Below are positions 1 through 9,090 of a DNA stretch of 9,452 nucleotides, piece after piece (positions within the stretch are counted from its first letter, which is position 1; each line of letters starts with the position of its first letter). The position numbers were made by a program, and so were the translations under genes. Origin of the DNA: a virus. Lineage: Duplodnaviria > Heunggongvirae > Uroviricota > Caudoviricetes. The DNA lies in the IMG/VR virus record IMGVR_UViG_2711768048_000004; one strand, given 5' to 3'. The notes below the pieces were generated by a model. The model saw only the letters and a program-made list of their open reading frames with translations, searched no databases and was not told where the DNA came from.

Positions 1-519
1 TTAATCTTTTTTTATTAAACTTTCACTCGTATAAATCAATTCCGCAATATCTTTTAAATGCCATTGCCGCTCAATATTAAAACTGATTATTCCAGTAATT
101 TTACAGGTAAATGTATTTATATTTGTTAGTATAAATGAATTTACACTTTCGCGTTTTTTGAACATGGCAAGTAAGGATATACATAGTCTTTCTTTTAACC
201 AAAGGGAGTGTGAGTCTGCTATTTTAATCCCTTCAAACAGAGAAAAAACAAGCGATAATGGAGGTTCCTCTTCAGCAATATAGCCATTCTTATCAAGAGT
301 AAATTTGCCAGGCAGCTCATTATTCACGTCGATAAAAAAGGATAAACATGTTTTCTTATCTATATCAACAATTCTTAGTTTAGAGGGGCATACTGGTAAC
401 TCCCTTCTAATTTTGTCGCTTACAATAAACAATGAATTTTTTTTGAACGAGATAACTCTCCTGTTTATAATTAAATCAAATGATTGACAGATGAAAACTA
501 CGGAGCAAACATAATCCAT
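1..519 (-). CDS. appY: AraC-family regulator, AppY-like, N-terminal 172 aa only; ends at a TAA at positions 1-3 just as the HTH region begins, so it is probably truncated
   Basis: The 172 aa ORF is recalled as matching the AppY N-terminal region. Its last residues ([19 protein letters not shown]) look like the start of an AraC-type HTH, but the ORF stops there. A T7 homopolymer (plus strand 7-13) sits right next to the stop. Confidence 0.65.
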
Positions 520-1325: not shown

Positions 1326-1463
1326 TTAACCCCTTGTAATTCATTGCCATAATTGATTTAATTCACAAATAAAACTATAACATGGTGAAATTAATAAAAA
1401 AACACAGATGATGGGGCTAGAATTTACACACCACTTACCCTAAAGCTTTATGACTGGTGGGTT

Positions 1464-2048
1464 TTGGGAGTATCAAATCGGCTTGCATGGGGATGTCCTA
1501 CAAAGGAACACCTTCTTCCACACTTTCTGGAACATTTAGGTAACAACCATCTGGATATTGGTGTTGGAACTGGGTTTTACCTTACTCACGTACCTGAGAG
1601 TAGTCTGATATCTTTAATGGATTTGAACGAAGCTAGCCTGAACGCGGCATCTACAAGGGCTGGGGAATCAAAAATTAAACATAAAATTAGCCATGATGTT
1701 TTTGAACCTTATCCCGCGGCGTTACATGGTCAATTTGATTCCATTTCCATGTCTTACCTTCTTCACTGCCTGCCTGGAAATATATCTACAAAAAGCTGTG
1801 TAATACGCAATGCGGCGCAGGCCTTAACTGACGATGGAACTCTATACGGAGCCACAATTCTTGGCGATGGAGTTGTGCACAATAGCTTCGGTCAAAAACT
1901 GATGCGCATTTACAATCAGAAAGGCATCTTTTCAAACACAAAAGATTCCGAAGAAGGCTTAACACATATACTCTCAGAGCATTTCGAGAATGTTAAAACC
2001 AAGGTTCAAGGTACTGTAGTAATGTTTTCCGCTTCAGGAAAAAAATAG
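1464..2048 (+). CDS. ybcY: Class I SAM-dependent methyltransferase-like protein (ybcY-like); possibly 5'-degenerate
   Basis: Contains a motif I-like glycine-rich stretch (LDIGVGTG) followed by an acidic residue (LMDLNE) and a hydrophobic block (FDSISMSYLLHCLP). There is no in-frame ATG upstream of motif I, only GTG at 1458 and TTG at 1464 with weak RBS. It is convergent with the tail-fibre remnant downstream. Confidence 0.55.
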   Translation: MGVSNRLAWGCPTKEHLLPHFLEHLGNNHLDIGVGTGFYLTHVPESSLISLMDLNEASLNAASTRAGESKIKHKISHDVFEPYPAALHGQFDSISMSYLLHCLPGNISTKSCVIRNAAQALTDDGTLYGATILGDGVVHNSFGQKLMRIYNQKGIFSNTKDSEEGLTHILSEHFENVKTKVQGTVVMFSASGKK

Positions 2049-2102: not shown

Positions 2103-2636
2103 TTACTCCCTGACAGGGTTCGTAGGCCACTCAATATCAGGTGCAGTTGATGTATCAACACGGTTCAGCAACCCTTCCGGCTTATTAGCAGAATATGCTG
2201 GTGACGTATGAATCGTCACGCTGGCATTACTGGTATAATCCCATTGAATATTTACACCAGTCGCATAATTTCCGATTGCAACGTAAATATCGTAAGTATC
2301 ACCAGATGTATTGACCCAGGCAAAATTTGTAAACCCTGTCGATGTGCGCTGCCATAAAGCACCAGTAATCCCCTTCGGATTACCATTACCTGCACGCAAA
2401 ACAAGTTCAGATATACCTGCCTGTTGAGGTGACCCCACGTTAAATCCCGCGCCACCAATCAACGTAATTGAAACAACAGAACTCGCCTGTGGCATGGTTA
2501 CCGTTGCTAATTTGAACCAACCAGCACCACCGCTGAATGACATTGTTGTTGAGTTAAGCGTACCAATATCTTTCGGCGTCAGTGTTATATCCGCTGAAAG
2601 CGCCTTACCATTCACCTTACGGGCAGAAGGCATCAT
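2103..2636 (-). CDS. Phage tail fibre / tail-fibre-assembly family remnant (tfaD-like) with a lambda-Tfa-type C-terminus
   Basis: The N-terminal part (VNGKALSADITLTPKDIG, glycine-rich repeats GGAGWF, IGGAGFNVG) looks like a tail fibre or adhesin. The C-terminus (LLNRVDTSTAPDIEWPTNPVRE) matches the lambda Tfa C-terminus. The DNA at 2128-2175 is roughly 75-80 percent identical by eye to 1081-1125. Confidence 0.5.
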   Translation of the reverse strand: MMPSARKVNGKALSADITLTPKDIGTLNSTTMSFSGGAGWFKLATVTMPQASSVVSITLIGGAGFNVGSPQQAGISELVLRAGNGNPKGITGALWQRTSTGFTNFAWVNTSGDTYDIYVAIGNYATGVNIQWDYTSNASVTIHTSPAYSANKPEGLLNRVDTSTAPDIEWPTNPVRE

Positions 2637-2732
2637 TAACGGATAACGCCAGCGTCGCGGGTGCCTCTCCGGCAGTCAGGCTGTCACCGGACACCGCATC
2701 CGTCAGGCGGCTGATCCCAAGCTGGCCTGCAA

Positions 2733-2765
2733 GCGCACAAAAGAAAACCCGCGCATAGGCGGGTT
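2733..2765 (-). terminator. Rho-independent terminator on the minus strand
   Basis: Stem aaacccgc (2745-2752) / gcgggtt (2759-2765) with a 6-nt loop; on the minus strand it is followed by TTTTCTTTTGTG. Confidence 0.45.
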
Positions 2766-2791
2766 CAAGCATAAGCGGCTCATTAAAGGCC

Positions 2792-2959
2792 ATGCTGGCA
2801 ATATGCGGGAGATTTCCTAACCAAATGATTGAACAAATTAACATCGCTCTTGAGCAAAAAGGGTCCGGGAATTTCTCAGCCTGGGTCATTGAAGCCTGCC
2901 GTCGGAGGCTAACGTCAGAAAAGAGAGCATATACATCAATTAAAAGTGATGAAGAATGA
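2792..2959 (+). CDS. Small hypothetical protein, possibly ylcI-like (44-55 aa), with a ribbon-helix-helix-like motif
   Basis: Reading from the ATG at 2825 gives MIEQINIALEQKGSGNFSAWVIEACRRRLTSEKRAYTSIKSDEE, stop at 2957-2959; an in-frame ATG at 2792 is an alternative start. The RBS is weak and the ORF is below the 60 aa track cutoff. The assignment is from memory of a DLP12 small ORF in this position. Confidence 0.4.
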   Translation: MLAICGRFPNQMIEQINIALEQKGSGNFSAWVIEACRRRLTSEKRAYTSIKSDEE

Positions 2960-4641: not shown

Positions 4642-5103
4642 CTATCTGCACTGCTCATTAATATACTTCTGGGTTCCTTCCAGTTGTTTTTGCATAGTGA
4701 TCAGCCTCTCTCTGAGGGTGAAATAATCCCGTTCAGCGGTGTCTGCCAGTCGGGGGGAGGCTGCATTATCCACGCCGGAGGCCGTGGTGGCTTCACGCAC
4801 TGACTGACAGACTGCTTTGATGTGCAACCGACGACGACCAGCGGCAACATCATCACGCAGAGCATCATTTTCAGCTTTCGCATCAGCTAACTCCTTCGTG
4901 TATTTTGCATCGAGCGCAGCAACATCACGCTGACGCATCTGCATGTCAGTAATTGCCGCGTTCGCTAGCTTCAGTTCTCTGGCATTTTTGTCGCGCTGGA
5001 CTTTGTAGGCGATTGCGTTATCACGGTAATGATTGACCGCCCATGACAGGCTGACGATGATGCAGATAATCAGAGCGGATATAATCGCGGTTACTCTGCT
5101 CAC
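4642..5103 (-). CDS. Rz: Rz i-spanin (inner-membrane spanin subunit)
   Basis: Near-identical to lambda Rz as recalled ([10 protein letters not shown]...YINEQCR). The likely start is the GTG at 5103-5101, overlapping the endolysin stop (GTGA); the track start at 5115 is another upstream GTG. Confidence 0.9.
4701..4883 (-). CDS. Rz1: Rz1 o-spanin lipoprotein, embedded in the +1 frame of Rz
   Basis: The 60 aa product has a signal peptide with lipobox VVVGC and a proline-rich segment ([15 protein letters not shown]), near-identical to lambda Rz1. AGGAG RBS 7 nt upstream of the ATG. Confidence 0.85.
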
Positions 5104-5597
5104 TGTTGCCCCCACAAACAGACTTCACGCTCAATCTCACGACGAGTCATCAGGCCTTTCCATTGCTTACCGCCAGCGTATGTCCAGCGACGCAGCTGAT
5201 CACATGCGCCTTTGATATCGCCCTGGTTTATTTTGCGAAGAAGCGTCGATGTTCTAAAATTGCCAGCACCCACGTTGTAAACGAATGAGTAAAGAGCGCC
5301 GCGCGTTGTTTCCGGTATATCGACTTTGATATACGGGTTAATTTGTCTGGCGACAGTGGCAAGGTCTTTATTCAAGAGTGCTTTGCATTCTGCTTTGGTA
5401 TACGTTTTACCGAGCATGATGTCTTTTCCGGTGTGTCCGTGACATACAGTCCATACACCAACAATATCTTTGTATGGTATGTAGCTGACACCTTCCAGAC
5501 CATCGTTACCACTTGGGCCAGTGATTAACACTGATGCTATAGCAATTGCTCCGCCACCAATAGCAGCAGCAACGGCTTTTCGTAATGATGGAGGCAT
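5100..5597 (-). CDS. R: SAR endolysin (phage 21 R-type lysozyme with N-terminal signal-anchor-release domain)
   Basis: 165 aa with an N-terminal Gly/Ala-rich weakly hydrophobic segment ([20 protein letters not shown]) and the T4-lysozyme-like catalytic spacing E-x8-D-x5-T ([16 protein letters not shown]). The start overlaps the holin stop (TAATG). Confidence 0.9.
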
Positions 5598-6384: not shown

Positions 6385-7482
6385 ATGAAAAAATTAACAG
6401 TGGCAATTTCTGCTGTAGCTGCATCAGTACTGATGGCGATGTCTGCTCAGGCAGCTGAAATTTATAATAAAGACAGTAACAAGCTGGATCTGTACGGGAA
6501 AGTTAATGCTAAGCACTACTTCTCCTCTAATGATGCAGATGATGGTGATACTACTTATGCCCGTCTTGGCTTCAAAGGTGAAACCCAAATCAACGATCAA
6601 CTGACTGGTTTCGGTCAGTGGGAATATGAATTCAAAGGCAACCGCGCTGAATCTCAAGGTTCCTCCAAAGATAAAACCCGTCTTGCCTTCGCTGGCCTGA
6701 AATTCGGTGACTACGGCTCCATCGATTACGGCCGTAACTACGGTGTAGCATACGACATCGGTGCGTGGACTGACGTCCTGCCAGAATTCGGTGGTGACAC
6801 TTGGACTCAAACCGACGTGTTCATGACTCAACGTGCAACTGGTGTTGCAACCTATCGTAACAACGACTTCTTTGGTCTGGTTGATGGTCTGAACTTTGCT
6901 GCTCAGTACCAAGGCAAAAACGATCGTAGCGATTTCGATAACTACACTGAAGGTAACGGTGATGGCTTCGGTTTCTCTGCTACCTATGAATACGAAGGAT
7001 TCGGTATCGGTGCAACTTATGCGAAATCTGATCGTACCGACACTCAAGTTAATGCAGGGAAAGTTCTTCCTGAAGTATTTGCTTCCGGTAAAAATGCAGA
7101 AGTTTGGGCCGCAGGTCTGAAATATGACGCTAACAACATTTACCTGGCCACTACCTATTCTGAAACCCAGAATATGACTGTATTTGCTGATCACTTCGTT
7201 GCTAATAAAGCCCAAAACTTCGAAGCTGTTGCACAATATCAGTTCGATTTCGGTCTGCGTCCGTCCGTTGCTTACCTGCAATCTAAAGGTAAGGATCTTG
7301 GAGTATGGGGCGATCAGGACTTAGTCAAATATGTTGATGTAGGTGCAACCTATTACTTCAACAAAAATATGTCTACTTTCGTTGATTACAAAATCAACCT
7401 GCTTGACAAAAATGACTTCACTAAAGCACTCGGTGTAAGCACTGATGACATCGTTGCTGTAGGTCTGGTTTACCAGTTCTAA
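6385..7482 (+). CDS. nmpC: OmpC-family general porin (NmpC / Lc / OmpD-like), phage-borne
   Basis: 365 aa with a classic Sec signal peptide ([23 protein letters not shown], cleavage after AQA), porin hallmarks ([15 protein letters not shown] start of mature protein, aromatic-rich beta strands, C-terminal ...VGLVYQF). It sits between Q and the holin on the opposite strand, as in DLP12 and PA-2. Confidence 0.9.
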
Positions 7483-8640: not shown

Positions 8641-8927
8641 GCCTTAATAACCCCCTCTTTCAGCCAGATAACCTGTGTTCTCGCCATACCTTCCAGCGCG
8701 CATTCTTTTGCATATCCAGCGTCAACAAAATGCGTGCGGCGGTCGATTTCGTCGTGGCAGGCAGAACATGCAATGGTGGCAATCAGGTCTGGCGGTTTCG
8801 TACCGGTGCCGCACAATCCAGTCAGCCGGATATGTGCCAGTACAGACGTTTCAGGGTTGCCATTACATACGCCAGGGATTCTTACCTGGCATTCCCGACC
8901 ACGCGCTGCTTTTCTCAAATCAGCCAT
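8637..8927 (-). CDS. ybcO: DUF1364-family putative nuclease (ybcO-like)
   Basis: 96 aa from the ATG at 8927, with a GGAGGA RBS. Contains Cys/His clusters ([11 protein letters not shown] ... CSACHDEID) consistent with a metal-binding nuclease. Confidence 0.8.
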
Positions 8928-9090
8928 GACTCCTCCTTGCTGCCAGTCGCAACCATTTTTTATCAACCAGGCTGGCGGTATATCCGAGCAGTGTTGGTAT
9001 TTCGGATGGCTTCAGCTCAGGTTTACGCTTACGACGATTTGGTACTCTGTAGATGTGTCCGTTCATGACACGAATAAGCGGTGTAGCCAT
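8920..9090 (-). CDS. ninE: NinE protein
   Basis: 56 aa from the ATG at 9090 (MATPLIRVMNGHIYRVPNRRKRKPELK...), with an AGGAGG RBS. The start overlaps the ninB-like stop by 1 nt and the 3' end overlaps the ybcO start by 8 nt. Confidence 0.8.
   Translation of the reverse strand: MATPLIRVMNGHIYRVPNRRKRKPELKPSEIPTLLGYTASLVDKKWLRLAARRSHG

Follow-up and report, generated by a model that had tools for sequence, protein, structure and literature searches.

The 9452-nt stretch of DNA analyzed here, referred to as the window, begins with appY of a DLP12-type prophage (positions 1 to 519, minus strand), located at the prophage end beside ompT-envY as judged from the neighborhoods in BAA-196, MG1655, FDN-24 and L006. 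The remaining gene content includes bor, rzpD, rrrD, essD, a porin gene, quuD, rusA, ybcO and ninE. appY, assigned by sequence identity, is present as an ORF that starts with ATG, comprises 172 codons and ends in ...SESLIKKD, confirming the preliminary description of a 172-aa minus-strand ORF at this position. The premature TAA stop (complement of positions 1 to 3) is created by a frameshift and is part of TTA AGG (L173 R174) in the wild-type frame. Beside it, at positions 7 to 13, lies a homopolymer of exactly seven T on the plus strand, as had been noted, corresponding to A7 on the coding strand and to codons I169-K170-K171; this is the site of a 1-bp deletion, the wild type being A8. A second A8 tract of appY (positions 437 to 444, minus strand; codons F25-K26-K27-N28) is unaltered in the window. 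The exact coincidence of the window start with the TAA suggests that the window was probably trimmed at a gene-call boundary.

Residues 1-171 of the window product are identical to AppY of both K-12 and FDN-24 (171/171) and are followed by the frameshifted D172; the product falls into the same 90% cluster as AppY. In the alignment, the coding strand reads ATA AAA AAA GAT TAA (I K K D stop) in the window and in ATCC BAA-196 FS, and ATA AAA AAA AGA TTA AGG (I K K R L R), with A8, in MG1655. K-12 and FDN-24 carry T8 and encode a 249-aa AppY. The window ORF thus ends after 172 aa because the A8 tract (codons 170-172) is reduced to A7. One extra base had been predicted to change the reading to IKKRL, and adding one A indeed gives ...IKKRLRDEG... 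as in the real AppY; compared with K-12 appY, the gene is a single base short of A8 and otherwise identical over residues 1-171. The appY gene has a GC content of 32% and uses AAA for 20 and AAG for 2 of its lysine codons.

The closest characterized counterpart is K-12 AppY (b0564; WP_000386784.1), a DLP12-encoded activator of the AraC/XylS family acting on hya, appCBA, gadE, gadY and nhaR. The window gene resembles it in residues 1-171, in its position at the prophage end by ompT-envY and in the upstream region. It differs in encoding 172 instead of 249 aa, in having one A fewer in the A8 run and in having lost the two-HTH domain (residues 159-235 of the K-12 protein). According to Pfam, intact AppY contains HTH_18 (residues 159-235) and HTH_AraC (residues 198-233), while no HTH domain was matched in the 172-aa product using Pfam and NCBIfam. 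That search returned only a sub-threshold match to HSD_C together with weak similarity of the N-terminal part to the YdeO, GadX and HilD models, far under the cut-off; all of these mean no more than "AraC-family N-terminal part". The window product consists of the N-terminal domain plus the first ca. 13 residues of HTH_18, with the stop in HTH motif 1, at K170/K171. The proposal that the gene is truncated just as its DNA-binding domain begins was therefore nearly right, the stop being located ca. 13 residues inside HTH_18. As an AppY ortholog, the window gene shows the N-terminal identity and lacks the in-frame two-HTH C-terminal domain of ca. 100 aa; it is classified as a pseudogene of the AraC/XylS family and not as a functional member.

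The likely consequences can be judged from a published point mutant. AppY-K170E is present at normal protein levels, does not bind hyaA, gadE or gadY promoter DNA, has a ChIP-seq profile resembling that of the empty vector and is without the effects of AppY on acid resistance, biofilm and motility, so that K170 in HTH motif 1 is essential both for binding DNA and for every AppY phenotype tested (Derdouri et al., PLoS Genet 2023, PMC10057817). With HTH_18 mostly gone and K170 being essential, the 172-aa product should not bind DNA and should be null in this respect. By the same reasoning, AppY of the window should be unable to activate hya, appCBA, gadE, gadY or nhaR. The pleiotropic effects of AppY are seen mainly under overproduction (PMC10057817).

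The sequence past the window edge can be followed in related genomes. No gap-free match to the whole window was found among complete E. coli genomes, the best matches being the chicken isolates FDN-24 and FDN-9 with two differences in 9452 nt. In both isolates, these are the tract itself (T7 in the window, T8 there) and a G/A SNP at 8970 (G in the window, A in FDN-24); relative to FDN-24 there is no further indel, and the six other homopolymers of at least 7 nt in the window are unchanged. The nearest relative is a draft contig, L006 (GCA_019371785.1, JAENAJ010000015.1), which shows 0 SNPs over 9452 nt, shares T7 and the G at 8970 with the window and differs solely by C5 to C4 at 8650-8654, at the 3' end of ybcO. 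As anticipated, the rest of the gene, 231 nt, lies outside the window and is present in L006, where it is unbroken in a different frame and ends in ...KTID. The 79 aa encoded out of frame still match HTH_18 (E = 5.9e-16) and HTH_AraC, so that the HTH expected beyond the edge was found without secondary decay, and inserting one A into L006 appY restores the exact FDN-24/K-12 gene. Since the HTH remainder is undecayed and the nearest T8 relative is only one SNP away in 9.4 kb, the event appears to be recent; the change in the tract would be either recent or not real.

ATCC BAA-196 FS, which is gap-free over bases 1-900, was considered as the background of the window and ruled out: K-12 derivatives including BAA-196 align to no more than 93% of the window and have IS5 in or next to the porin gene nmpC. 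The window prophage is a non-K-12 variant of DLP12 with an intact nmpC-type porin gene (6385-7482, plus strand, 365 aa) without IS5 downstream, whereas the 3' end of the MG1655 nmpC ortholog is cut by IS5. Window positions 2173-2812 have no counterpart in K-12 DLP12, which has nohD and terminase remnants there. A ybcY-like gene for a class I SAM-dependent methyltransferase (ca. 1382-2048, plus strand) is a frameshifted pseudogene with its lesion near 1396-1402, a 2-bp deletion at the edge of an A-run (ATG followed by A8 in S42, AT followed by A7 in the window). K-12 and FDN-24 share this lesion; S42, PE15 and a15 have an intact copy. A 60-aa lipoprotein-like ORF (4701-4883, minus strand) lies out of frame within rzpD (4642-5115, minus strand), the usual embedded-gene layout of Rz/Rz1 (rzpD/rzoD). 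The window stems from a variant of DLP12 that has decayed differently.

Distribution and inheritance of the shortened tract

Using the first 900 window bases as query against complete E. coli genomes, the appY locus was found in 837 of 5426. AppY had been introduced as a global regulator, which is overstated for an accessory, prophage-encoded AraC-family activator with this distribution. With this query, ATCC BAA-196 FS was the sole gap-free match among the matches listed, the others listed spanning 901 bases. The tract was then sized with a 90-nt query centered on it, an exact match being counted as T7. T7 was exact in 19 of the 837 appY-carrying complete genomes (2.3%), and nearly all others were one base longer (T8). 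T9 was seen in three (0.4%), all of one laboratory lineage (HE_50/HE_100/HE_100-10); in ESBL 15, 92 nt were spanned for the 91-nt T9 query, which may represent T10. The suggestion of a slippage-type frameshift is supported by these numbers, the window carrying a 1-bp deletion in an A8 tract compared with ca. 97% of appY-carrying genomes. In metagenome and viral contigs, the locus was present on 51, with T7 in two and T8 in 49, and the T7 pattern was not found among GTDB species representatives.

The allele is also visible in public annotation. RefSeq labels appY as "frameshifted" in all 17 of the T7 genomes inspected. Examples such as BAA196FS_RS16440 in NZ_CP042867.1 and the genes of a15, PBS4, MY732 and iso648 have the same A7 allele and an identical 172-aa product, although their strain backgrounds differ from that of the window. 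A large protein collection lists the identical 172-aa product for 456 mostly short contigs (697 blocks), and it is also deposited under GenBank accessions QEF08796.1, CAH5413732.1, GDD97642.1 and GDF79228.1. A literature search on an appY homopolymer frameshift found no relevant report. Public annotation already contains the gene, the allele and its status as a pseudogene.

We examined 29 T7 loci and clustered them at a threshold of at most 5 SNPs per 9.7 kb, which resulted in 16 SNP clusters. One of them, clade A, contains a15 (pig, China), PBS4 (duck, China), MY732 (dog, Japan) and 36C_1_fosA3 (cattle, Japan). In this clade, T7 is the sole indel relative to MG1655 in 9.7 kb, and no T8 was found among genomes with the clade A 3.3-kb haplotype. 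This is inheritance and not coincident error. Clean T7 carriers also occur singly (N18-04097, ECCWS199, 442/2, CDDKNU01, L006 and the metagenome contig L040), and 500010 is a clean carrier too.

A second informative group is an ST648-like lineage, in which four complete genomes carry T7 and at least 27 carry T8 on the same 3.3-kb haplotype. iso648 is a clean T7 assembly, and the ST648-like T7 genomes are clean as well. Within the lineage T7 was found on both alleles of a nearby SNP, implying that T7 arose there at least twice or that the prophage arm has recombined. Variants of the tail fiber and Lom were tried as markers of ST648-like sub-lineages and failed to separate T7 from T8. The structure of the tail-fiber gene differs between otherwise identical ST648-like genomes, and in the lom/gpJ arm (16400-20550 of the ST648-like locus L082) VOFH01 and CH10508 show dense SNP blocks indicative of recombination. 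Because the tail region is recombinant, the number of independent T7 events in this lineage is uncertain. Taken together, the occurrence of the same deletion on at least 16 haplotype backgrounds and its inheritance within a clade identify T7 as a genuine natural allele.

Insertion sequences are found at the locus as well. In the ST648-like strain EC11 (NZ_CM169490.1), appY is split by IS1, an independent route to loss, and IS1 copies adjoin appY in 2011EL-1370-2, N18-04097 and 20AR0300.

Sequencing error, phase variation and recoding

Runs of A8/T8 are typical sites of deletion errors in long-read sequencing. A homopolymer sequencing error, which the preliminary description had left aside, is therefore a possible origin of the T7 call in the window: the source would have T8 and an intact appY, one T having been dropped by basecalling or consensus. 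Such errors do affect the locus. At least 7 of the 29 T7 loci sit in assemblies with further homopolymer indels nearby, and across the conserved 10-kb region between appY and nfrB we counted 16-17 1-bp indels in VOFH01, 5-6 in BS-01 and 3 in CP063991 (K-12), as well as nine deletions in CP047127 (K-12) and eight insertions in SCU-482. The K-12 derivative BAA-196 FS, which carries T7, is a PacBio RS II-only assembly. Further, the differences between the window, L006 and FDN-24 are mostly homopolymer indels (T8/T7, C5/C4 and, in ompT, C4/C3) with few SNPs, a pattern expected of long-read error. Off the window, ompT of FDN-24 is annotated as frameshifted (C4 to C3 relative to MG1655), which may be a real loss or a miscall.

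As an internal control for both instability and miscalling we used the second A8 tract of appY (window positions 437-444). There, 6 of 835 complete genomes carried T7 and 2 carried T9, and the length was variant in 3 of the 48 contigs of metagenome or viral origin, compared with 2 of 51 for the tract at 7-13. T7 at the control tract is also found in the K-12 MG1655 laboratory strain JW5437-1. Both A8 tracts were mis-sized in three assemblies where 0.2 would be expected (P = 0.0008), again as miscalling would produce. The window itself has no other indel in 9452 nt relative to FDN-24, its six other runs of 7 nt or more being unaltered, and T7 is also present in the non-identical sister assembly L006. 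Elsewhere T7 is real and inherited, as seen in clade A with its several laboratories and in the clean ST648-like assemblies, and it is present in one clean metagenome contig. We consider the T7 call in the window to be probably a real mutation and a miscall to be unlikely, while still the most serious competitor.

The preliminary description had also raised phase-variable inactivation. On such a reading, the A-run would be a selected simple-sequence switch that turns AppY reversibly off and on (T8 to T7 to T8), trading acid resistance and biofilm formation against motility. Several observations would fit such a switch. The same deletion occurs on many backgrounds (the 16 SNP clusters), T7 and T8 coexist on one 3.3-kb haplotype in the ST648-like lineage, and overproduction of AppY leads to strong trade-off phenotypes (PMC10057817). 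In raw genome counts, changes at the tract exceed those at the control A8 tract 2.6-fold (P = 0.02), with 19 vs. 6 genomes carrying T7 (P = 0.015). This excess over the control is lost, and the difference is not significant, once clones are collapsed and error-prone assemblies are dropped (ca. 8 vs. 3 events), and in the metagenome and viral contigs both A8 tracts are equally variable. As 8 of the 19 T7 genomes fall into two clades and several assemblies are error-prone, we do not claim any difference in instability between the two tracts.

Other properties of the tract argue against a switch more directly. At 7-8 nt it is short for a contingency locus by general knowledge, and it is fully accounted for by KK dipeptides together with AAA-biased codon usage: when synonymous codons of appY were shuffled, 88-88.5% of the shuffled genes retained an A/T run of 8 or longer and 24% had two or more. 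The off state is confined to 2.3% of genomes and T9 to 0.4% and a single laboratory lineage, while clade A is fixed for T7 even though its isolates come from four hosts (pig, duck, dog, cattle) and from both China and Japan. Loss of appY via IS1, as in EC11, is what ordinary decay of an accessory gene predicts. Measured against what defines a contingency gene, the tract is no longer than composition predicts and shows no behavior that would set it apart from non-switch tracts. Phase variation, which is not supported given the short, codon-expected tract, the rarity of T9, the similar control tract and the fixation in clade A, is in our view highly improbable. The A8 run appears to be an ordinary mutational hot spot and not a programmed switch.

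The resemblance to the contingency genes of Neisseria, Haemophilus, Campylobacter and Helicobacter is limited to a recurrent intragenic homopolymer frameshift that turns the product off. In those organisms, selection maintains longer tracts, a single population commonly contains both lengths, and switching is fast and reversible. In appY, by comparison, codon usage predicts the A8 tract, the off state accounts for 2.3% of genomes, and clade A keeps the gene stably off.

Another way in which the truncated allele could retain function is recoding. Here, the T7 allele would still yield full-length AppY, either because ribosomes slip by -1 on A_AAA_AAA_G or because RNA polymerase adds an A, and the gene would be down-tuned rather than dead or would make two products on purpose. 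The sequence itself would allow for this, since the zero-frame heptamer in the T7 allele is AT[A AAA AAA] GAT and a -1 shift reads AGA TTA AGG (RLR), returning to the wild-type frame ...IKKRLRDEG... A-runs in E. coli promote ribosomal and transcriptional slippage (PMC4066793, PMC1088944). In E. coli genes, runs of A7 and U7 are under-represented, for which slippage or frequent indels have been suggested as possible reasons (PMC4066793), and selection against coding A/T runs, attributed to transcriptional slippage, is typically evident from about nine nucleotides (PMC1088944). The A7 run is shorter than this slippage range of ca. 9 nt (PMC1088944). In the downstream 87 nt, no stimulatory RNA structure was detected (MFE -11.3 kcal/mol, z = -0.44, 63 of 200 shuffles folding as well), and no Shine-Dalgarno-like (GGAGG-like) element is evident upstream of the heptamer. 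Further, appY forms one in-frame ORF in ca. 97% of its copies, so that the frameshifted arrangement is not the conserved state. The T7 allele shares with dnaX and IS-element -1 frameshifting and with poly(A) transcriptional slippage an A-rich slippery heptamer at which a -1 shift restores the frame. It differs from dnaX and IS-element recoding in its lack of a stimulatory structure or SD-like element, in a run below ca. 9 nt and in a frameshift that is not conserved. Rescue by slippage would be expected to reach a few per cent at most, and any leak is probably small. We regard recoding as the least probable of the readings discussed here, and even programmed phase variation and recoding taken jointly as very improbable.

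Conclusions

In conclusion, the window most likely carries a loss-of-function allele of appY that arose by replication slippage, with one A:T pair lost from an A8 tract that is an ordinary hot spot without a programmed switch (probability ca. 0.7). Slippage would have removed one A:T pair from the A8 run encoding I169-K170-K171-R172, and the resulting frameshift would lead to D172 followed by TAA, keeping the N-terminal domain and losing nearly the entire two-HTH domain. The A8 run may be explained as a by-product of Lys-Lys being written with two AAA codons in an AT-rich gene (32% GC) obtained by horizontal transfer, and the same deletion has arisen many times in E. coli at this hot spot. Bacterial pseudogenes arise most commonly through homopolymer frameshifts, and as a discovery the present case matters little. 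It does carry a caution for genome users: ca. 2% of "complete" E. coli genomes carry the T7 call, inherited mutations being mixed with long-read errors, and real and miscalled T7 can be separated only by reads or by an internal control tract.

A more far-reaching interpretation is that the A8 run at K170-K171 is more than a passive target, repeated independent T8 to T7 changes and the IS1 disruption reflecting positive selection for silencing a prophage regulator. The homopolymer would then offer a cheap, occasionally reversible and, through -1 slippage, slightly leaky route; the young ST648-like clone, with at least two T8 to T7 losses and an IS1 disruption, would be an example, and the regulator being silenced, AppY, would be one that boosts acid resistance and biofilm formation but blocks motility. 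We deem such selection very unlikely. If true, it would amount to a contingency-like switch in E. coli, a species that to our knowledge is not known for phase variation based on simple sequence repeats. Selection against AppY, if it were behind the recurrence, would inform how hosts domesticate or silence prophage regulators; the present data do not require it. In practice, a T7 strain should lack the AppY-dependent induction of hydrogenase 1, of cytochrome bd-II/AppA and of the GadE/GadY/NhaR branch.
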